Of a DNA stretch of 50,309 nucleotides, positions 5,481 to 46,754 are shown in pieces. Numbering within the stretch: position 1 is the first letter of the stretch; every line of letters starts with the position of its first letter. The notes below the pieces were generated by a model. The model had not been told where the DNA came from. It worked only from the letters and a program-made list of their open reading frames with translations, and made no database searches. This DNA comes from Shigella phage Sfin-3. Location of the stretch: the sequence record MN296515; one strand, given 5' to 3'. The translations under genes and the position numbers were made by a program.

Positions 5481-5500
5481 ATGCCTGCAATATGGTAAAA

Positions 5501-5515
5501 TAGCACTAAATGTTA
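5501..5515 (+). promoter_or_regulatory. degenerate palindrome copy (TAGCA-ctaaa-TGTTA) without 22-nt-spaced -10
   Basis: Sits between terminator 5460-5480 and TerS start; only TATATT 11 nt downstream. Confidence 0.35.
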
Positions 5516-5533
5516 AACAAAGAGGGTATATTT

Positions 5534-12187: not shown

Positions 12188-12208
12188 CACAAAAACACTT
12201 TGACGCTT

Positions 12209-12223
12209 TAACAAAAAGTGCTA
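12209..12223 (-). promoter_or_regulatory. orphan palindrome copy, antisense to late operon
   Basis: Minus-strand reading TAGCA-ctttt-TGTTA; no - strand gene downstream; adjacent to terminator 12232-12257. Confidence 0.35.
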
Positions 12224-12231
12224 TTATTGAA

Positions 12232-12257
12232 GCCGTGAACATAATCACGGCTTTTTT
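12232..12257 (+). terminator. rho-independent terminator
   Basis: 7-bp stem GCCGTGA/TCACGGC, loop acataa, then T6. Confidence 0.7.
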
Positions 12258-12278
12258 ATTAACTACGGAGAAGTAATC

Positions 12279-13238
12279 ATGACTACTAAAAAATTTGATG
12301 AAGCAGATAAAAGTAACGTTGAAATGTATCTGATCCAGGCTGGCGTAAAACAGGATGCAGCCGCAACAATGGGTATCTGGACCGCTCAGGAACTACACCG
12401 CATTAAAAGCCAGTCCTATGAAGAAGACTACCCGGTCGGCTCCGCTCTACGCGTATTCCCGGTTACAACCGATCTTTCTCCGACTGATAAGACGTTCGAA
12501 TACATGACCTTTGATAAGGTTGGCACGGCTCAGATTATCGCGGACTACACCGACGACCTGCCGCTTGTTGATGCCCTTGGTACTTCTGAGTTCGGTAAAG
12601 TGTTCCGTTTGGGTAACGCGTATCTGATCTCAATCGACGAAATCAAAGCGGGTCAGGCAACTGGTCGCCCACTGTCAACTCGTAAGGCAAGTGCGTGCCA
12701 GTTGGCTCATGATCAGCTTGTTAACCGCCTGGTGTTCAAAGGTTCCGCGCCGCACAAGATTGTGTCCGTGTTCAATCATCCGAACATCACCAAAATTACC
12801 TCCGGTAAGTGGATGGATGGCGCAACTCAGAAACCGGAAACGGCTGAAGCGGAATTGACTCAGGCGATCGAAACCATCGAGACGATTACTCGAGGCCAGC
12901 ACCGAGCTACCAACATTCTGATCCCGCCGTCCATGCGTAAGGTGCTGGCGATTCGTATGCCTGAGACTACCATGTCTTATCTGGACTATTTCAAGTCTCA
13001 GAACTCAGGTATCGAAATCGACTCTATCGCAGAGCTTGAGGATATTGACGGCGCAGGCACCAAAGGCGTACTGGTGTACGAAAAGAATCCGATGAACATG
13101 TCCATAGAGATCCCGGAAGCATTTAACATGCTGCCAGCACAACCGAAAGACTTGCACTTTAAAGTGCCTTGCACCTCTAAGTGTACTGGTCTTACAATTT
13201 ATCGCCCGATGACTATTGTCTTAATCACTGGCGTGTAA
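12279..13238 (+). CDS. major capsid protein (lambda gpE-like)
   Basis: 319 aa; position, size and flanking terminators typical of a highly expressed capsid gene; GGAGAAG RBS. Confidence 0.8.
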   Translation: MTTKKFDEADKSNVEMYLIQAGVKQDAAATMGIWTAQELHRIKSQSYEEDYPVGSALRVFPVTTDLSPTDKTFEYMTFDKVGTAQIIADYTDDLPLVDALGTSEFGKVFRLGNAYLISIDEIKAGQATGRPLSTRKASACQLAHDQLVNRLVFKGSAPHKIVSVFNHPNITKITSGKWMDGATQKPETAEAELTQAIETIETITRGQHRATNILIPPSMRKVLAIRMPETTMSYLDYFKSQNSGIEIDSIAELEDIDGAGTKGVLVYEKNPMNMSIEIPEAFNMLPAQPKDLHFKVPCTSKCTGLTIYRPMTIVLITGV

Positions 13239-13245
13239 TATTATA

Positions 13246-13273
13246 GGGGCTAACTTAGTTAGTCCCTTTTTTT
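13246..13273 (+). terminator. rho-independent terminator
   Basis: ~10-bp stem GGGGCTAACT/AGTTAGTCCC (one G-U) then T7; after major capsid gene. Confidence 0.7.
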
Positions 13274-13288
13274 ATTGGAGAAATCAAA

Positions 13289-13576
13289 ATGGCTAAAGAA
13301 AAAACTGTTGTTATCGTAAACGTTGGTGTAGCTCTTCAGATGTTCCGTCTTGAAGATGGTTCCTTTGCTAAAGTTCTTCCAGATGAAGAGGTCACGCTTC
13401 CGGCGTCCGTTCTTGATTTACCTGGTCTGCGTTGCTTAATTGCTCGCGAAGAAATCGAAGTTAAAGACGACAGTGCAACCAACCGCAAAATCCGCGCTGA
13501 AATGGCAAAGATCACTAAGCCAGATCCGTGGGATAGCAAAAGCGTTAAAGAGCTTGAGGACGGCGGCGAATATTAA
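13289..13576 (+). CDS. hypothetical structural protein (95 aa)
   Basis: Flanked by terminators 13246-13273 and 13583-13607; function unknown. Confidence 0.5.
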   Translation: MAKEKTVVIVNVGVALQMFRLEDGSFAKVLPDEEVTLPASVLDLPGLRCLIAREEIEVKDDSATNRKIRAEMAKITKPDPWDSKSVKELEDGGEY

Positions 13577-13582
13577 TCATCA

Positions 13583-13607
13583 AGGCGCTCATGTAGCGCC
13601 TTTTTTT
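13583..13607 (+). terminator. rho-independent terminator
   Basis: Stem GGCGCT/AGCGCC, loop catgt, then T7. Confidence 0.7.
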
Positions 13608-13620
13608 GTGGAGTTTGGTT

Positions 13621-14031
13621 ATGAATCAAGAAACTTTAATTTCAGTTGTTGAGCAAATGCGAAAGCTGGTCCCTGCACTTCGCAAAGTTCCAGATGAAAC
13701 TCTTTATGCATGGGTGGAAATGGCTGAGCTATTCGTATGCCAGAAGACCTTTAAAGACGCATACGTCAAAGCGCTCGCTCTTTATGCATTGCACCTTGCT
13801 TTCCTTGACGGGGCGCTAAAAGGTGAAGATGAGGATCTGGAATCGTACTCACGACGCGTTACGTCATTCTCCCTGAGCGGTGAATTTAGCCAGACTTTCG
13901 GAGAGGTTACGAAGAACCAGTCAGGAAACATGATGCTTTCGACGCCGTGGGGTAAGATGTTCGAGCAGCTTAAAGCGCGACGCCGTGGTAGATTCGCATT
14001 AATGACAGGACTCCGTGGAGGATGCCACTAA
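13621..14031 (+). CDS. putative head-tail connector protein
   Basis: Position between capsid and tail genes; ATG 13621 with GTGGAG RBS after terminator. Confidence 0.45.
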   Translation: MNQETLISVVEQMRKLVPALRKVPDETLYAWVEMAELFVCQKTFKDAYVKALALYALHLAFLDGALKGEDEDLESYSRRVTSFSLSGEFSQTFGEVTKNQSGNMMLSTPWGKMFEQLKARRRGRFALMTGLRGGCH

Positions 14032-14402
14032 TGAACTACTCACAGATTGAAAGAATGGCTCGCAAAGGCGTGGCTTTCTTCACCGATCCGTCAAGACCTA
14101 TGAGCCTGATAAAACAAGTTGAATACGGATATGATGAAAACGGATTCGAGATCCAACCGATGGAACAGGTTATTCCAATATCCGGCGCGACGCGAAGACC
14201 GAAAGCGCGTGAGATTGACGGAGAAACCATCCGCGCCTCAGATATTTTGGGGATCTTCAATAATGATCATGAAATAAACGAAGGTGACTATATAGATATT
14301 GATGGCATTCGTCATGTTGTCGTTGATGCTCGCCCGGTTCAGGCGTCACTGGAACCAGTCGCCTATCGTCCAGTATTGCGGAGGGTATCAGTCGGTGGCT
14401 AA
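14022..14402 (+). CDS. putative head-tail joining protein
   Basis: 126 aa; start overlaps upstream gene; synteny only. Confidence 0.45.
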   Translation: MPLMNYSQIERMARKGVAFFTDPSRPMSLIKQVEYGYDENGFEIQPMEQVIPISGATRRPKAREIDGETIRASDILGIFNNDHEINEGDYIDIDGIRHVVVDARPVQASLEPVAYRPVLRRVSVGG

Positions 14403-14838
14403 TTATCAGATTCGTAGATTTCAAGGCGAGATTGATGCGTGGATTAAGGCCGCTGAAAGCACGTTAGAACATGCCATTGAAATATTCGTAAGGGATGTTC
14501 ACGACGCTCTTGTTAGCCGATCCCCTGTTGATACAGGTCGATTCAAGGGTAACTGGCAGATAACTTTTAACGAAATCCCTAACCACGCATTAAACCGATA
14601 CGATAAAACTGGCGGTGTCGTCAGGGGTGAGGAACAGGCAAAAACTTATGGCATGTTCAGCCGTGGCGGCGCGATAACATCCGTTCACTTTTCAAACATG
14701 TTGATTTATGCAAACGCTCTTGAGTACGGTCATTCACAGCAAGCACCGAGCGGCGTTGTCGGCCTTGTGGCATTAAGGCTGAGATCATATATGGCTGACG
14801 CAATCAAGCAGGCAAGGAGACAGCAAAATGCACTATGA
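14395..14838 (+). CDS. putative tail completion protein (HK97 gp10-like)
   Basis: GTG 14395 with GGAGGG RBS chosen over upstream in-frame ATGs that lie deep inside previous gene; synteny. Confidence 0.4.
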   Translation: MANYQIRRFQGEIDAWIKAAESTLEHAIEIFVRDVHDALVSRSPVDTGRFKGNWQITFNEIPNHALNRYDKTGGVVRGEEQAKTYGMFSRGGAITSVHFSNMLIYANALEYGHSQQAPSGVVGLVALRLRSYMADAIKQARRQQNAL

Positions 14839-15226
14839 GTTATCAGCGGCGGCGCGAGCCGCTTTTCTATCAAAGTACAGAGACTTTCCTCACTACATGG
14901 AAAACAGAAATTTCATACCGCCGAAGGATGGCGGGATGTGGCTGAGGTTCAACTACATTGAAGGGGATACGCTTTATCTATCCATTGACAGAAAGTGTAA
15001 ATCTTACATCGCAATCGTTCAGATCGGAGTAGTGTTCCCTCCAGGATCCGGCGTTGACGAAGCAAGATTGAAAGCAAAAGAGATTGCTGATTTTTTCAAA
15101 GATGGTAAAATGCTTAACGTTGGTTATATTTTCGAGGGTGCAATCGTGCATCAAATTGTTAAACATGAAAGCGGGTGGATGATTCCGGTTCGCTTTACAG
15201 TACGAGTAGACACAAAGGAGACTTAA
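14828..15226 (+). CDS. putative tail terminator/neck protein
   Basis: 132 aa; immediately upstream of tail tube gene. Confidence 0.45.
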   Translation: MHYELSAAARAAFLSKYRDFPHYMENRNFIPPKDGGMWLRFNYIEGDTLYLSIDRKCKSYIAIVQIGVVFPPGSGVDEARLKAKEIADFFKDGKMLNVGYIFEGAIVHQIVKHESGWMIPVRFTVRVDTKET

Positions 15227-15228
15227 TT

Positions 15229-15897
15229 ATGCACTTACCAAATGGCGCGCAAATTTTCGTGGAAACCTCTCGCGGAGAAGAGATTGAGGCAACCGCTATT
15301 ACTAACGCAGAAAATCCTGTTGCTACAGTTGCATCTAAGGGCGACTTAGTAAAAGGCGATTACGTTATTGTAACTCAGTCAACCTGGGCCAAGATGGTCA
15401 GTCGAGTGCTAATTGTTACTGACGCTCAGGAAACAAGCATCACTCTCGCTGGGATTGACACCTCTGATACTCTTGTTTTCCCGGCTGGCGGTACGATGAG
15501 CTTTGCAAAAATTACTGGCTGGACTGAGATTCCTTGTGTACAGGAGATTGGTAAGGACGGCGGCGAGCAGCAGTATTATACTTATCAGTGCTTGTCCGAC
15601 GATAAAGAACAGCAGATCCCAACGTTTAAATCTGCGATCTCGCTAACTTACACATTCGCGCACGAATTTGATAACCCGATCTACCCTATTCTGCGTAAGC
15701 TGGATTCTTCTGGTCAGGTAACTGCGGTTCGGATGTATGTTCCAAAAGCGAACGAGATGCGCATGTGGGCTGGTATCTTGTCTTTTAACGACATTCCATC
15801 TACGCAAGTAAACGAAATGGAAACGGTACAACTCGCCGTATCACTGAAGGGTGATTTCACTTTCGTTTCATCCGCTCTGGCATCACCTGGTGCCTAA
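15229..15897 (+). CDS. major tail (tube) protein
   Basis: 222 aa; AAGGAG RBS; position before chaperone/tape-measure genes; followed by terminator. Confidence 0.6.
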   Translation: MHLPNGAQIFVETSRGEEIEATAITNAENPVATVASKGDLVKGDYVIVTQSTWAKMVSRVLIVTDAQETSITLAGIDTSDTLVFPAGGTMSFAKITGWTEIPCVQEIGKDGGEQQYYTYQCLSDDKEQQIPTFKSAISLTYTFAHEFDNPIYPILRKLDSSGQVTAVRMYVPKANEMRMWAGILSFNDIPSTQVNEMETVQLAVSLKGDFTFVSSALASPGA

Positions 15898-15909
15898 ATC
15901 ATATCCACA

Positions 15910-15934
15910 GGGGGCTTGCGCCCCCTTATTCATT
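15910..15934 (+). terminator. rho-independent terminator candidate
   Basis: GGGGGC-ttgc-GCCCCC followed by TTATTCATTT (interrupted T-tract); after tail tube gene. Confidence 0.5.
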
Positions 15935-15973
15935 TCTGTAAAATCATCGTATCAAGTTTGCACTATTCTCTTT

Positions 15974-15988
15974 TAACAAAAAGTGCCA
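15974..15988 (-). promoter_or_regulatory. orphan palindrome copy, antisense to late operon
   Basis: Minus-strand reading TGGCA-ctttt-TGTTA between tail tube and chaperone genes; 22 nt then TACGAT on minus strand. Confidence 0.35.
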
Positions 15989-16010
15989 TTAACCAATCAG
16001 GAGAAATATC

Positions 16011-16328
16011 ATGGCTAAATTTAATTTCGTTCTTGGTCAACTTCCAGACTTCAAACTTCCAGTCACCTTCACCATGCCTAACGGTGAAGATGCAACGATC
16101 ATTTTCACTGTACGCCACCTTTCCAGTAAAGAAGTTCAGGATATGTATGCCAACCAGGGAGAAATGAACGACAGCGAGTTCATTACCAAGATCGCGTCAG
16201 GATGGAACCTTGAAGAAGAATTTAACGAAGAAAATGCGCGAAAACTGGTTCAGTATTATCCTTCAGCAGCGTACAACCTGACAGCAACTTACATCAAGGC
16301 TCTCGCCGGACACCGCGCAAAAAACTAA
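16011..16328 (+). CDS. tail assembly chaperone (lambda gpG-like)
   Basis: 105 aa immediately upstream of tape measure; ends at slippery heptamer A-AAA-AAC. Confidence 0.7.
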   Translation: MAKFNFVLGQLPDFKLPVTFTMPNGEDATIIFTVRHLSSKEVQDMYANQGEMNDSEFITKIASGWNLEEEFNEENARKLVQYYPSAAYNLTATYIKALAGHRAKN

Positions 16329-22107: not shown

Positions 22108-22130
22108 CCCGCCTTGCGCGGGTTTTTTTT
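22108..22130 (+). terminator. rho-independent terminator
   Basis: CCCGC-cttgc-GCGGG then T8; just before tail tip gene. Confidence 0.65.
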
Positions 22131-22178
22131 CGCCTGTATAATGAGTCCACCGATAAATAGCACAAAAAGGTAAACATC

Positions 22179-27353: not shown

Positions 27354-27381
27354 TTGACTAAACGCTGTTAATGGCTATAAT
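27354..27381 (+). promoter_or_regulatory. sigma70-like promoter for exonuclease/Erf/SSB operon (TTGACT-16-TATAAT)
   Basis: -35 27354-27359, -10 27376-27381; 32 nt upstream of ATG 27413. Confidence 0.55.
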
Positions 27382-31493: not shown

Positions 31494-31508
31494 TAGCACG
31501 AATTGCTA
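31494..31508. promoter_or_regulatory. palindrome copy in operator position at tail-fibre promoter
   Basis: TAGCA-cgaat-TGCTA lies between the predicted TSS of the - strand sigma70-like promoter (31516-31544) and the tail-fibre RBS. Confidence 0.45.
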
Positions 31509-32568: not shown

Positions 32569-33021
32569 TTAACTAAAAATGCTATTGGTCGTTCCGATAT
32601 CTTCCTTCTTGACAACTCGCATAAACTTCTTGTTTTTGCAGCGCTTCTCAAGGCACTTGCCGTTCCCATCAAACTTCAGATCGAATCGCAGCCATGCGGC
32701 CCGAAATCCTTTGCAACCCTGTCGGCGATAAGCACGATGCGCCGCTTCAGCGCCTTGCCAGGAAATCATATTTCGATCCTTCCACCCTTGAACCGTCTGG
32801 TTGCTAACTTTCAGAGCCTTTGCGCAAGCCGCCGGACCACCATAATATTCAATAAGAGCATCCAATCGCGCTCTCAGTCCTGCGCGCGTTTCTTCTTTAT
32901 GGATATAAAATCCGCAGCGCTGGCGAGGCTTTTTATCTTTACCGCGTCGTGTTCCGTTGTTACCATTGATGTGACGTTTATCGATTTCACCAGTAGACTC
33001 TGCGATACGCTTCATATTCAT
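32569..33021 (-). CDS. Cro/YdaS-like HTH DNA-binding protein
   Basis: ATG 33021 with GGAGA RBS (track start 33093 would overlap the promoter); central ...ACAKALKVSNQTVQGW...RFDL resembles YdaS/Cro-type HTH; basic N-terminus. Confidence 0.5.
   Translation of the reverse strand: MNMKRIAESTGEIDKRHINGNNGTRRGKDKKPRQRCGFYIHKEETRAGLRARLDALIEYYGGPAACAKALKVSNQTVQGWKDRNMISWQGAEAAHRAYRRQGCKGFRAAWLRFDLKFDGNGKCLEKRCKNKKFMRVVKKEDIGTTNSIFS
32570..32584 (-). promoter_or_regulatory. degenerate palindrome copy (TAGCA-ttttt-AGTTA) at 3' end of Cro-like gene
   Basis: Encodes the C-terminal NSIFS* of the Cro-like protein; followed on minus strand by terminator 32522-32559. Confidence 0.3.
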
Positions 33022-33034
33022 ATTAATTCTCCTG

Positions 33035-33077
33035 TAGCACTTTTTGCTAAAAACGTTTACTGTATGCCGTGTATTAT
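33035..33077 (+). promoter_or_regulatory. composite promoter module for helicase operon (TAGCA-ctttt-TGCTA, 22 nt, -10 TATTAT)
   Basis: Palindrome 33035-33049; -10 33072-33077; GTG 33116; palindrome is also in the 5' leader of the divergent Cro-like gene. Confidence 0.55.
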
Positions 33078-33101
33078 ATCGTAAACGATACAACGATTCA
33101 A
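33073..33101 (-). promoter_or_regulatory. sigma70-like promoter for Cro-like gene (TTGAAT-17-TATAAT)
   Basis: Minus-strand -35 33096-33101, -10 33073-33078; its -10 overlaps the + strand -10 (33072-33077) of the helicase promoter. Confidence 0.55.
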
Positions 33102-33115
33102 AGGATTAAATAGCC

Positions 33116-37412: not shown

Positions 37413-38564
37413 ATGTCACAAGCTAAAATCACTACCGAGCAACTTATCGAAGAGCGCATGAGCGGCCTTACACTTCGCGAGATTGCGGAAAAGTACGGTA
37501 TGCACATCCGCACTGTTGAAGCTCGTCACGCAAAACTTGCAAAGGAAGGTCACTTCCACGGTAACGAGCATGTTGCTAAGAACGTACCGGAAGGATTCAT
37601 GGTAAAAGGCACATCAACGATGATTCGCGGCGATGGGACCGAGGTAGTGCGATGGGTTAAGACCGATCAGGACCGTGAGAAGATTGCGGCAATGATGGAA
37701 GCAGCGCGTATTGCATTCTGTGAAGACTTGCCGCGAGCAAAACCAACTGAGCTACTCACATCGCAAGGGCTTACAACCGCTATTGGCAAGCTGGCACTCT
37801 ACCCGGTGTTCGATCTTCACATTGGCGCGCTTGCTCACAAGCATGAATGCGGAGAGAACTACTCTACAGACGTAGCGGAAAAAGTGCTGAATGACTTCTT
37901 TAACTACGCGATCGATATTGCCCCGAACGCAGAGAAGGCTGTTCTGTTAATCGGCGGCGACTTCCTTCACTCAGACGGTCTTGATGCTGTTACCCCGGCA
38001 AGCGGTCACGTTCTGGATCAGGATTCACGATATGCGAAATTGGTGCATGTGGCTATTCGATCGGTGCGACGAGCTATCGACAAAATGCTGACTAAACACA
38101 AAGAGGTCGAAGTTCAGGTTATCGAAGGGAACCACGACCAGGCCGGAATGATTTGGCTACGCGCTGCAATGGCTGCATACTATGAGGACGAGCCGCGAGT
38201 ATTCGTTGACGTTAGTCCTATGATTCTGCATAAGACCCGCTGGGGAAATACCTTGTTGGGATACACTCACGGTCACACGATGAAAAAGGCAGACACGCGA
38301 CTTGCAGCGATGGCGGCAGACTTCCGTGCAGACTTCGGTGAAAGCAAATACGTGTATACTCACAGTGGACACTGGCACCATCAAACAATCACAGAACACT
38401 CGTTAGGTATTGATGAGGTTCACGGGCAGTTAGGCGCGAAAGATGCATACGCCGCGCGAGGCGGGTGGCGCTCATATCGCCAGGCGGCGGTAATCGTTTA
38501 CGATAAACAGTTTGGTGAAATCGGTCGATTCATCTATCGTCCAGAAATGACAGGATCGCACTAA
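37413..38564 (+). CDS. HTH domain fused to calcineurin-like metallophosphoesterase
   Basis: 383 aa; N-terminal LTLREIAEKYGMHIRTVE (sigma-region-4/LuxR-like HTH); then DLH, GDFLHSDG, GNHD, GHTM, GHWHH phosphoesterase motifs. Confidence 0.65.
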   Translation: MSQAKITTEQLIEERMSGLTLREIAEKYGMHIRTVEARHAKLAKEGHFHGNEHVAKNVPEGFMVKGTSTMIRGDGTEVVRWVKTDQDREKIAAMMEAARIAFCEDLPRAKPTELLTSQGLTTAIGKLALYPVFDLHIGALAHKHECGENYSTDVAEKVLNDFFNYAIDIAPNAEKAVLLIGGDFLHSDGLDAVTPASGHVLDQDSRYAKLVHVAIRSVRRAIDKMLTKHKEVEVQVIEGNHDQAGMIWLRAAMAAYYEDEPRVFVDVSPMILHKTRWGNTLLGYTHGHTMKKADTRLAAMAADFRADFGESKYVYTHSGHWHHQTITEHSLGIDEVHGQLGAKDAYAARGGWRSYRQAAVIVYDKQFGEIGRFIYRPEMTGSH

Positions 38565-38598
38565 TTGCTAAAAATACCCGAATGGACTCGGGTATAGT
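38556..38598 (+). promoter_or_regulatory. composite promoter module (TCGCA-ctaat-TGCTA, 22 nt, -10 TATAGT)
   Basis: Palindrome 38556-38570; hairpin 38575-38594; -10 38593-38598; ATG 38628. Confidence 0.55.
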
Positions 38599-38627
38599 AG
38601 ACACATAGAAAATAAAGAGGACATATC

Positions 38628-38804
38628 ATGAAACGAGTTAAGTGCATCCGAAATGATTCCAAAACGCTTCCATTCCGCGTAAATCAGATCTATAGTGTTG
38701 GTTATGATTTCGGAGGTGGATTGTTTGAGATTTACGATGGTAGAGGTTCAACAATCCAAGCTCCTCTGAACGGTCATTACCTGGAATTTATTGAGCTAGA
38801 TTAA
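38628..38804 (+). CDS. hypothetical small protein (58 aa)
   Basis: ATG 38628 with AAAGAGG RBS after module 38556-38598; followed by terminator 38827-38856; below ORF-track cutoff. Confidence 0.45.
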   Translation: MKRVKCIRNDSKTLPFRVNQIYSVGYDFGGGLFEIYDGRGSTIQAPLNGHYLEFIELD

Positions 38805-38826
38805 CAATATCATTCATAACCTTACG

Positions 38827-46233: not shown

Positions 46234-46433
46234 TCCAATAGTTGCTCATTATTCCACCAGTAATGGAATATCTGGAATAATTGCGATCCCGATTGATCTC
46301 GAATGATGAAATGTGATTGTTGCATGATGTGCAACTGTTGATGTGATTGTTGCTTGGAATGCAATGATTGTGAGAGGGAGGATTTAGTGTTACCCGGTTC
46401 GCCTGGTAGTCATCTCCATTTTTAGCAAAACGT

Positions 46434-46448
46434 GCTATCGATTACACT
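46434..46448 (-). promoter_or_regulatory. palindrome copy (TAGCA-cgttt-TGCTA) without evident -10
   Basis: Minus-strand orientation in intergenic region B; no TATAAT-like hexamer at 22-24 nt. Confidence 0.35.
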
Positions 46449-46754
46449 TTAACTTGTCACGACTGTAATATTTGTCTAGAATCGCACTTGTGACAAAATT
46501 ACGCACTGTGACGCATAACAATAGACATGTAGATATATGTATATATATAATATATATAGTGTTTTTTTATTTATATATATAGATAATCATATTGTAATGG
46601 TTGTGTATAGCCGTCTTACATTGTCTAGCGTACTGTTGGCATATTTCTATCTGCATGTTTATATATACAGTACTTTTTTGAGAGCCATATATTTCTATAT
46701 GGACCCTAGACAGCTAGACAAATGTTACACAGCTTAAAATTGGCTCGCAGGCAT

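Follow-up and report, generated by a model that had tools for sequence, protein, structure and literature searches.

Reversed marbox-type repeats in the late region of the T1-like phage Sfin-3 as putative sites of interference with late promoters

Two copies of a short repeat that lie backwards among the plus-strand late genes of Shigella phage Sfin-3 are probably (we put the chance at about 0.6) working protein-binding sites, at which a factor that activates some 20 early promoters would also interfere with late sigma-70 promoters. The window (the whole 50,309-nucleotide stretch of sequence record MN296515) shares 95% identity with phage ADB-2 and 94% with T1 over 6 kb; by sequence it is a T1-like phage (Tunavirus), from a family for which our literature search found no transcriptome. 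One copy lies at 12209-12223 (plus strand TAACAAAAAGTGCTA), between the genes for the decoration protein and the major capsid protein, and the other at 15974-15988 (plus strand TAACAAAAAGTGCCA), between those for the major tail protein and the tape-measure chaperone. The initial annotation of this DNA had placed and oriented both correctly, describing them as orphan copies of a palindrome that might be antisense promoters, roadblocks to late read-through or decay remnants. The plus-strand promoters that house them had been overlooked.

The motif is asymmetric rather than palindromic. On the minus strand the copies read AATAGCACTTTTTGTTAAAA (12209-12223) and AATgGCACTTTTTGTTAAAA (15974-15988), the family's consensus in its extended, asymmetric form. 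With up to three mismatches allowed, the 15-mer occurs 19 times in the whole window against 3.3 expected, a count reached in none of 100 shuffles. The E. coli marbox is defined as GCAnnWWnTGnnAAA (PMC12052159), and the resulting pattern GCANNWWNTGNNAAA is matched without mismatch at 21 places in the window, the two late copies included, where 0.95 are expected and the shuffle maximum is 5; four diverse genomes of the family hold 13-18 perfect matches apiece. Around 20 copies in the window have a TAnnnT -10 at 20 nt downstream and no -35, and the same layout, together with a conserved start-site motif, is seen in a set of 61 sites. At positions outside those used to select the sites, the logo of this set follows the asymmetric consensus and breaks the dyad, with C at -44 opposite T at -40 and G at -47 (2 bits) opposite C/T at -37 (0.7 bits). 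Published rules for class II sites specify a forward box centred near -41 and no -35 (PMC12052159, PMC10268841). In layout the repeat family matches these rules, and in sequence it matches the DNA site of the host stress activators MarA, SoxS and Rob.

The repeat is already known from TLS and T1, where it has been given no function (German et al. 2024, PMC11447400). That account concerns 21-nt direct repeats of TLS, T1, Rtp and Rogue1 (consensus aaATAGCACnnnTTGnTAAAA, three centre variants), numbering about 20 per genome, mostly intergenic and oriented with transcription some 76 nt ahead of start codons; as to their role it guesses at stoperators, enhancer sites or UP elements, and a fixed -10 partner and marbox identity are absent from it. 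The window's element is the same as these repeats, but the 12209 and 15974 copies are reversed. Amongst host promoters of the MarA/SoxS/Rob/RamA class II kind, E. coli micF (GCACTGAATGTCAAA-N20-TAGAAT) is close in design, its forward asymmetric box lying over the -35 position, with no -35 and, as in the phage sites, 20 nt between box and -10. Host class II boxes are degenerate, however, whereas the phage boxes, about 20 per 50 kb in a virulent phage, are nearly all perfect. The design is exemplified by a reference site:

33037-51, plus strand: marbox, followed by 20 nt and the -10 TATTAT (33072-77) of the helicase gene promoter

This promoter and the pir promoter stand back to back, the former overlapping the -10 of the latter (TATAAT, 33079-74, minus strand), and the pir leader crosses the box. 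The opposed layout recurs in four diverse Drexlerviridae genomes and in phage Motto, and the pir promoter has been found experimentally to be down-regulated.

At the capsid gene the features are as follows:

12207..12221, minus strand: perfect marbox GCACTTTTTGTTAAA, the core of the 12209-12223 copy, backward relative to the late genes
12200..12227, plus strand: P_mcp, predicted sigma-70 promoter of the major capsid gene
12229..12257, plus strand: intrinsic terminator, a hairpin (arms 12229-12254) and T run

P_mcp consists of TTGACG (12200-05), a 16-nt spacer and TATTAT (12222-27), and is the top plus-strand promoter match across 5-25 kb (10/12, plus TG); the T1 record carries a promoter annotation here. 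An A-rich tract lies upstream. The spacer is made up of 1 nt and the 15-nt marbox, the TG of which (12219-20) doubles as the extended -10. Of 61 related loci, 60 have a box with at most one mismatch at this place and in this orientation, and the combination of box, -35 and -10 is retained in 60 of the 61; these loci comprise 44 distinct sequences, of which 40 have a perfect box. Both hexamers vary in relatives within the consensus only, the -35 as TTGACG, TTGCAC, TTGAAC, TTGACC, TTGCTG or TTGATT and the -10 as TATTAT, TATATT, TATCAT, TATGAT or TATTCT. Conservation of the late copies in position and orientation reaches down to 57% capsid identity, and they are therefore neither orphans nor decay remnants. 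That they are chance matches, or decaying leftovers of former early promoters, is very improbable indeed: the unusual orientation is the one point in favour, set against that conservation and against exact matches to a pattern with a genome-wide expectation of 0.95.

The proposal that this copy is an antisense promoter fails here, as no usable minus-strand -10 accompanies it (TATGCC in the window, TATGCG or GTAGCG in relatives). On sequence grounds its position is instead of the repressor type known from E. coli pbpG, where MarA, SoxS and Rob repress through a marbox in the promoter spacer (PMC12052159). The box at P_mcp likewise overlaps the spacer, filling it exactly, but differs from pbpG in providing the extended -10 TG, in the upstream A-rich tract and in the overlapping downstream terminator, and repression at P_mcp is putative. 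Further repressive marboxes inside core promoters occur at rob, purA and hdeA. The terminator begins merely 2-4 nt beyond the -10, so placed that the predicted P_mcp start (about 12235) falls within its 5' arm, and a similar overlap is seen in most relatives. RNA begun at 12235 retains just a 4-bp stem of the hairpin and would presumably escape termination.

Could the 12209 copy bind nothing, and be retained as parts (the TG and an A-rich 16-nt spacer) of a very strong capsid promoter? The TGC of the box does form the TGn of the extended -10, and the capsid promoter of the Braunvirinae phage 2004V has no box. Fifteen specified bases are more than a spacer needs, however, yet 40 of the 44 distinct sequences keep the box perfect, and in one lineage the GAA-centre variant replaces the TTT-centre one with the box pattern preserved. 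We regard this reading as improbable. On the preferred reading, a protein bound to a box that fills the spacer and supplies the TG would block RNA polymerase at the capsid promoter, giving direct repression.

The second copy lies in a different setting:

15972..15986, minus strand: perfect marbox GCACTTTTTGTTAAA, the core of the 15974-15988 copy, at the head of a minus-strand promoter
15946..15951, minus strand: -10 TACGAT of a class II promoter, predicted start about 15939
15939..15944, plus strand: -10 TAAAAT of P_chap, the promoter of the tape-measure chaperone gene, predicted start about 15951
15909..15934, plus strand: terminator after the major tail protein gene, a hairpin (15909-15926) plus tail

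This copy has every feature of the family and appears to head a complete class II promoter, antisense, with a predicted start. Here the initial annotation was borne out: TACGAT lies exactly 22 nt from the 15-mer, at 15951-15946, and the hairpins it noted beside both copies are real. In 24 of 24 distinct sequences the minus-strand -10 is TAnnnT, in eight variants (TAGGAT in seven, TACGAT in six, TAGAGT in four and TAGCAT in three, along with TAAGAT, TACAGT, TATCAT and TATATT), and it falls invariably 20 nt past the box, the spacer being otherwise free to vary. Such a fixed distance over a variable spacer argues that selection keeps the minus-strand promoter. The box is found in 28 loci, the window included, but is missing in about half of related loci, in which the intergenic region is about 40 nt shorter, and it is thus dispensable. 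In contrast to host class II promoters, this one has no gene behind it, and binding of a host protein is putative.

P_chap is modest: its -35 matches at 3/6 positions and it has no annotation in T1. The -35-like TTGCGC (15916-21) lies within the loop and 3' arm of the terminator, 17 nt before TAAAAT. The terminator hairpin is conserved in relatives and the P_chap -10 always directly follows the terminator, as TAAAAT, TAGAAT or TACAAT where the box is present and as TAATAT or CATAAT where it is not. Counted from the predicted P_chap start, the box itself covers roughly +21 to +35. The two -10s are 1 bp apart, with predicted starts divergent and about 12 bp apart; since both promoters would melt the same DNA, recruitment of polymerase by the 15972-15986 box and firing backwards would exclude firing forwards. 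The short antisense RNA would then enter the reverse of the tail-gene terminator. The pir and helicase promoters described above form an opposed pair of the same design.

It is unlikely, although compatible with promoter competition rather than exclusive of it, that what matters at this copy is the product. The major tail protein mRNA, to whose 3' end and terminator the antisense RNA is complementary, might be altered in stability, or antisense transcription might collide with read-through polymerases and so determine how much tail tube is made relative to the tail proteins encoded downstream. A conserved minus-strand promoter directed into the reverse of a terminator hairpin is consistent with this. 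The first 30-40 nt of the transcript, however, are conserved only where they are the reverse of the plus-strand -10, T run and hairpin; the region has no Rfam match, a simple scan found no minus-strand terminator, a 16-codon ORF is not conserved, and the copy is dispensable, as noted above.

Boxes are also found at other promoters:

5493-5501, plus strand: extended -10 promoter TGgTAAAAT where the late operon begins (small terminase)
5503-5517, plus strand: perfect forward marbox covering the predicted start of the terminase promoter
22160..22174, plus strand: degenerate forward marbox GCACAAAAAGGTAAA
46421..46482, plus strand: backward marbox (46421-35), then 18 nt and TTGTCA-N17-TAGAAT

In the late region, then, the 5503 and 22160 boxes are forward and the 12207 and 15972 boxes backward. 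The terminase arrangement (TG-n-TAAAAT and box, n varying) is retained in the diverged relatives L144 and L145. The half-site reported near 22160 is present as AATAGCAC at 22156-22163, one base off the range first given, and is really the 5' end of a conserved, degenerate full site. Ahead of the tail fibre (J-like) gene there is a late promoter, TTGCGC (22114-19)-N17-TATAAT (22137-42), and the box covers roughly +12 to +26 relative to it. Of the dyad in this box the right half is gone, but TAAA(C) is retained; in many relatives the site is conserved as AA(T/C)AGCACAAAAGGTTAAA, and in L096, L102, L111 and L121 it is a perfect box, GCACAAATTGTTAAA, and the ribosome-binding site is separate. Equivalent interference may operate at the terminase start and just 3' of the tail-fibre promoter. 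The roadblock idea survives in part, each site lying across a late promoter or shortly after one, but the targets would be promoters, not read-through. The 46421 box, centred at about -62 of a promoter with a good -35, has class I geometry; it shares 14 of 15 positions with the marRAB box of E. coli, whose geometry is the same, with 19 nt between box and TTGACT-N17-TATTAT.

As to the protein involved, there is a slightly better than even chance that it is of the host MarA/SoxS/Rob type (RamA in Klebsiella); otherwise a phage protein would bind. No AraC-type domain was found among the 20 early ORFs examined, and Orf65 homologues were found at 73% identity or above only. The same logic could operate with the phage's Cro-like Pir (T1 Orf23), a possible but doubtful binder, as a dimer on TAGCA-N5-TGCTA: Pir would activate from -42, as lambda cI does at PRM, and repress wherever the site overlaps a core promoter, the host marbox match being coincidence or mimicry. 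Pir is a near-core gene (823 phage records), nearly universal in the family, and adjoins one of the boxes. Its structure is predicted with confidence (pLDDT 81) and finds matches in the all-alpha Cro proteins of Xfaso 1 and N15, a fold that would suit a dyad centred at -42. In reporter assays Pir activates the dam promoter, where a box takes the class II position, and represses the pir promoter, where the box is in the leader. However, orf65, with a perfect and perfectly dyadic class II box, does not respond to Pir, whilst the boxless hol is activated and the boxless recE repressed. Site information is moreover asymmetric, reaching the 5' AAT and 3' AAA(A/C); these flanks are retained even in copies without promoter context, and the 22160 box keeps TAAA(C) without the right dyad half. 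The host proteins are therefore favoured over Pir. Against the host proteins, a family member whose recorded host is Pseudomonas aeruginosa, a species not known to have MarA, SoxS or Rob, retains the box. Motto and Vc1, with hosts labelled non-enteric, carry Pir homologues, which is in line with binding by Pir, and Motto retains the box.

Lambda cI at OR2 activates PRM and represses PR. The predicted phage arrangement is similar, in that one protein would activate from about -42 and repress on overlap, with divergent overlapping promoters; it differs in that lambda operators are dyad-symmetric and dimer-bound, whereas the phage site is asymmetric, and in that the promoter opposing that of the chaperone gene serves no gene. 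The stoperators of mycobacteriophage L5 are known only as blocks, effective in one orientation relative to transcription. They too are asymmetric sites in many copies across a phage genome, transcribed regions included, but most of the phage copies described here have a -10 at fixed distance, and those in the late region lie in both orientations.

From the sequence, geometry and conservation of the late sites we infer binding, start sites, the direction of regulation and its timing. A single factor that drives early promoters and represses capsid and tail promoters requires, as a prediction, that the factor later declines; as it becomes limiting, early promoters would fade and late promoters open. 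The marbox match thus suggests how the poorly understood T1-like phage family might time its genes.

Over 6 kb spanning the finding, the window shares 95% identity with Escherichia phage ADB-2 and 94% with phage T1. In the T1 annotation, the first late copy of the repeat (12209-12223) falls between the gene for the Ig-like decoration protein and that for the major capsid protein, and the second (15974-15988) between the major tail protein gene and the gene for the tape-measure chaperone. Both copies described in the initial annotation are present, reading TAACAAAAAGTGCTA (12209-12223) and TAACAAAAAGTGCCA (15974-15988) on the + strand; on the minus strand the same positions read AATAGCACTTTTTGTTAAAA and AATgGCACTTTTTGTTAAAA, respectively, and fit the direct-repeat consensus aaATAGCACnnnTTGnTAAAA of phage TLS. 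Each is oriented against the late genes, 56 nt (12223 to 12279) or 23 nt (15988 to 16011) ahead of the next + strand start codon. The terminators and the minus-strand TACGAT that had been placed beside them also stand: a terminator scan identifies a G+C-rich hairpin followed by a T run on the + strand at 12229-12254 and at 15909-15926, and 22 nt separate the TACGAT from the second copy. With three mismatches or fewer, the 15-mer occurs 19 times in the window (3.3 expected).

Neither the repeat nor the capsid promoter is itself new, the latter being annotated as a promoter in the T1 record. A 2024 reannotation of TLS reported 21 copies of the repeat consensus, with similar repeats in T1, Rtp and Rogue1, assigned only three sigma-70 promoters and guessed that the repeats were stoperators, enhancer sites or UP elements (PMC11447400). 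In TLS the direct-repeat elements run with transcription and precede a start codon by about 76 nt, unlike the late copies here. Four points appear to be new: the identity of the repeat as a marbox, the -10 that partners it at a fixed distance, the geometry of classes I and II, and the interpretation of the reversed copies as a circuit's repressive arm. A literature search found no paper tying T1-like phages to marboxes or to the host activators MarA, SoxS and Rob, and no Drexlerviridae transcriptome or start-site map.

When every copy in the window is oriented and its flanks are read, about 20 take the form TAGCACnnnTTGYTA and point in the same direction as the local genes, with a TAnnnT hexamer 22 nt (occasionally 23) after the 15-mer, CATCGAA a further 5-6 nt on and no -35 hexamer. 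This layout holds for the + strand genes at 0.3-3.7, 33-38.6 and 47-50 kb and for the minus-strand genes at 40-46 kb. Work from the Grainger laboratory defines the binding site of MarA, SoxS and Rob (the marbox) as the asymmetric sequence 5'-GCAnnWWnTGnnAAA-3', which in class II promoters lies forward, overlaps the -35 position with its centre near -41 and is not accompanied by a recognisable -35 (PMC12052159, PMC10268841). The window contains 21 perfect matches to this sequence, both late copies among them, where 0.95 would be expected; the box is the same element as the 15-mer, its frame offset by 2 nt.

A search for relatives with the phage Cro-like protein Pir as query gave only close ones, and four diverse, unannotated family members were therefore taken instead (one Tempevirinae, two Webervirus and one Braunvirinae). 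Each has 13-18 perfect marboxes and 9-16 sites with TAnnnT 18-20 nt after the box, mostly 20. In a logo of 61 sites from five genomes, the forward box occupies -47 to -33, 20 nt from TAnnnT and without a -35, its centre at about -40 from the predicted start. The longer marbox consensus reportedly drawn up by Martin et al. in 1999, the 20-mer AYnGCACnnWnnRYYAAAYn, is also matched at positions outside the site selection, with A at -50, T at -49, C at -44, C/T at -37 and T at -36 (A1, Y2, C7, Y14 and Y15 of the 20-mer). At E. coli K-12 micF, GCACTGAATGTCAAA is followed after 20 nt by TAGAAT, with an annotated RNA 5' end 8 nt past the hexamer, and the spacing from box to -10 is identical to that of the phage class II sites. 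This shared layout suggests that about 20 early promoters per genome, with predicted starts, are class II marbox-type promoters. One box is of class I type, lying upstream of a promoter with its own -35:

46421-46435 (region 46421-46482), backward: class I-type box, 18 nt upstream of TTGTCA-N17-TAGAAT, centre at about -62

This box, at the start of the rightward early genes, is identical at 14 of 15 positions to that of E. coli marRAB, which stands 19 nt upstream of TTGACT-N17-TATTAT in the same class I geometry. A class I role can be dismissed for both late copies, as a start 62-72 nt downstream would hit coding regions and no -10 is found there.

Three other identities for the repeat were considered and rejected. 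The sequence TGGCACTTTTTGTTA at 15974 resembles a sigma-54 promoter (TGGCAC-N5-TTGCW) only superficially, the family having AG rather than GG, a spacing one base short and a conserved TAnnnT 20-22 nt downstream. The MotA boxes of T4 lie 11-13 bp from the -10, as against 20-22 here, and TTGYTA as a displaced -35 would need a 22-nt spacer. An Rfam search of the whole window gave no matches. The boxes fall into three types by their centres (TTT, GAA and TAA), the left arm having mostly GAA or TAA and the right arm and both late copies mostly TTT, and orthologous boxes change centre type between phage lineages.

The two late copies are built into their surroundings in different ways: the minus-strand promoter at 15972-15946 has class II geometry and the box at 12207-12221 does not, starts being predicted in each case. 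At 12209-12223 the proposal of an antisense promoter fails, the minus strand having no usable -10 at the family distance (TATGCC here, TATGCG or GTAGCG in relatives). Instead, the + strand reads TTGACG, 1 nt, the 15-nt box and then TATTAT directly, giving a 16-nt spacer in which the box's own TG is placed as the extended -10 of the capsid promoter, which among + strand sequences of the late region gives the best promoter match. Across 61 related loci (capsid identity 57% to 100%), the backward box is present with at most one mismatch in 60 (44 distinct sequences, 40 perfect), whilst the -35 is only ever TTGACG, TTGCAC, TTGAAC, TTGACC, TTGCTG or TTGATT and the -10 only TATTAT, TATATT, TATCAT, TATGAT or TATTCT. 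Such restricted variation in the hexamers, with the box kept in all but one locus, argues for selection both on the + strand promoter and on the site within its spacer. The -35 is preceded by an A-rich tract, ATAACAcAAAAA, and the terminator hairpin starts 2-4 nt past the -10. In RNA from the predicted start at about 12235 only a 4-bp stem of the hairpin remains; transcripts from upstream would thus stop whilst those of the capsid promoter itself would escape. The distant phage 2004V has the promoter and lacks the box, so the promoter is apparently the more widely kept of the two and the box an added control. In the repressive marbox of the pbpG type, the box likewise overlaps the spacer of an otherwise activator-independent sigma-70 promoter (PMC12052159), and repression of the capsid promoter is predicted.

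The minus-strand promoter proposed for 15974-15988 fares better. The copy is found at 28 loci including the window (24 distinct sequences) and is missing from about half of related loci, where the intergenic region is some 40 nt shorter. Where it is present, a minus-strand TAnnnT lies exactly 20 nt after the box in all 24 distinct sequences, with eight different hexamers and a spacer that is nearly free to vary. A -10 kept at a fixed distance across a varying spacer makes a strong comparative case that the minus-strand class II promoter is real. On the + strand, a -10 (TAAAAT, TAGAAT or TACAAT; 15939-15944 here) directly follows the tail-gene terminator, and relatives without the box also have one at that place. 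TTGCGC occurs in the loops of two late terminators (15916-15921 and 22114-22119), each time 17 nt upstream of a -10, suggesting that each terminator also supplies the promoter after it with a -35 region. The two opposed -10 hexamers are 1 bp apart in 24 of 24 sequences and the predicted starts, at about 15951 (+) and 15939 (minus), are divergent and 12 bp apart; both promoters would therefore melt the same DNA and their polymerases should exclude each other. The predicted antisense RNA begins with the reverse of the terminator hairpin, although no minus-strand terminator passes the same scan when 15909-26 is read in that direction. A small ORF on the antisense transcript is not conserved among relatives and was set aside.

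Boxes are also found at two further late promoters and, in an opposed design shared with the chaperone-gene region, between pir and the helicase gene:

5493-5501, + strand: promoter at the head of the late operon, extended -10 TGgTAAAAT, with a perfect forward box overlapping it and lying over the predicted start
22160-22174, + strand: degenerate forward box, about 12-26 nt downstream of the predicted start of TTGCGC-N17-TATAAT
33023-33115, both strands: back-to-back pir/helicase promoters, helicase TATTAT at 33072-77 (+) overlapping pir TATAAT at 33079-74 (minus)

The extended -10 and box at the head of the late operon are kept in diverged relatives, the middle base varying. The half-site that the initial annotation saw just upstream of the tail tip gene exists as AATAGCAC at 22156-22163 but is better described as the 5' end of the degenerate forward box. 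This box is widely conserved, which overlap with a ribosome-binding site could partly explain in the window; in one lineage it is perfect and has a separate ribosome-binding site. In the pir/helicase region, the helicase promoter is read as box-dependent and the pir promoter as constitutive, with the box inside the pir leader, and the opposed design is conserved in all four diverse Drexlerviridae genomes. A third reversed copy (31494-31508), a perfect box against the primase and orf26 genes, lies just upstream of the orf26 ribosome-binding site and has no usable -10 on either strand. The recE promoter (27354-27381, TTGACT-N16-TATAAT) is near-consensus sigma-70, lacks a box and may be an immediate-early promoter. 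A class II promoter with a box (38556-38600, TCGCACTAATTGCTA-N22-TATAGT) precedes an unlisted 58-codon ORF (38629-38805) ahead of the lysis genes.

The protein that binds the box is, on the match to the marbox, somewhat more probably than otherwise a host factor of the MarA/SoxS/Rob type. A phage-encoded AraC-type protein can be discounted, as a Pfam scan of 20 early ORFs revealed no AraC-type domain. Against a host factor, the pir/helicase spacer of phage Motto (L168), labelled a Pseudomonas phage, retains both box and -10, and the T1-like Vibrio phage Vc1 likewise carries a non-enteric host label; however, the 'Campylobacter' records among T1-like phages are marked unverified, and host labels in this group are thus often doubtful.

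Pir is a less likely binder, and another phage protein less likely still. T1 Pir (Orf23) is reported to activate the hol and dam promoters and to repress its own promoter and recE, and Orf65 to repress pir and activate itself (PMC6737242). When the published reporter primers are mapped onto the window, the dam reporter holds a class II box and the leader of the pir reporter contains a box. A perfect class II box begins 10 nt into the orf65 reporter, which is nevertheless Pir-independent; the hol reporter (which begins downstream of the 38556-38600 promoter) has no box yet is Pir-activated, and the recE promoter has no box. Orf65 itself was rejected, its homologues being found only at 73% identity or above and, where named, all in T1-type phages; its AlphaFold model (pLDDT 50) is unusable. 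The near-universality of Pir in the family makes its presence or absence uninformative. Its model is confident and comprises a single Cro-type helix-turn-helix, which eliminates Pir as a MarA-like protein. A Cro/cI-type dimer operator with symmetric half-site conservation is not what the logo displays: C at -44 is opposite T at -40, and G at -47 has 2.0 bits as against 0.7 for its C/T partner at -37, an asymmetry that lowers the case for such a dimer. About half of the copies have TAGCA/TGCTA arms; of the two flanks, both A-rich, one is AAT and the other AAA.

Within Pir (32572-33021, minus strand), the stretch that varies least across the family is a predicted disordered N-terminal arm, residues 11-33 (STGEIDKRxINGNNGTRRGKDKKPR), which may contact DNA or another protein. 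The sequence CGTAAACG occurs six times in the window (27390, 33080, 43593, 13315, 32139 and 38495; 1.4 expected), once just downstream of the recE -10 and once over the predicted helicase start, and could be the real Pir operator, since both regions are Pir-repressed.

In the circuit that we propose, one factor would activate about 20 early promoters and interfere with four late ones, by sitting in the spacer, over the start site or just downstream, or by driving an opposing promoter, so that late expression would need the factor to become limiting. Speculatively, this might come about by decay of MarA or SoxS, which have a short half-life (PMC6307708), after host shut-off, or by titration on replicated genomes, with Rob diluted over hundreds of genomes of about 25 sites each. 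Tentatively, then, T1-like phages may entrust their entire programme to a host stress regulator (MarA, SoxS, Rob or RamA), with about 20 early perfect class II promoters (one class I), the same protein shutting the late capsid, tail and terminase promoters and the switch made by its loss or titration; we would put the probability of this at about 0.4.

T1 belongs to the seven classic T phages and is notorious as a laboratory contaminant. If the repeats are marbox promoters, most early operons of over 800 sequenced phages would gain an assigned promoter, and the reversed copies would be explained as the repressive arm of the same circuit. If a host factor binds them, the regulators that drive multidrug resistance would also be linked to susceptibility to a widely used group of therapeutic phages of Klebsiella, E. 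coli and Shigella, and, were the circuit as a whole correct, the success of infection would depend on the stress state of the host (bile salts, salicylate, oxidants).
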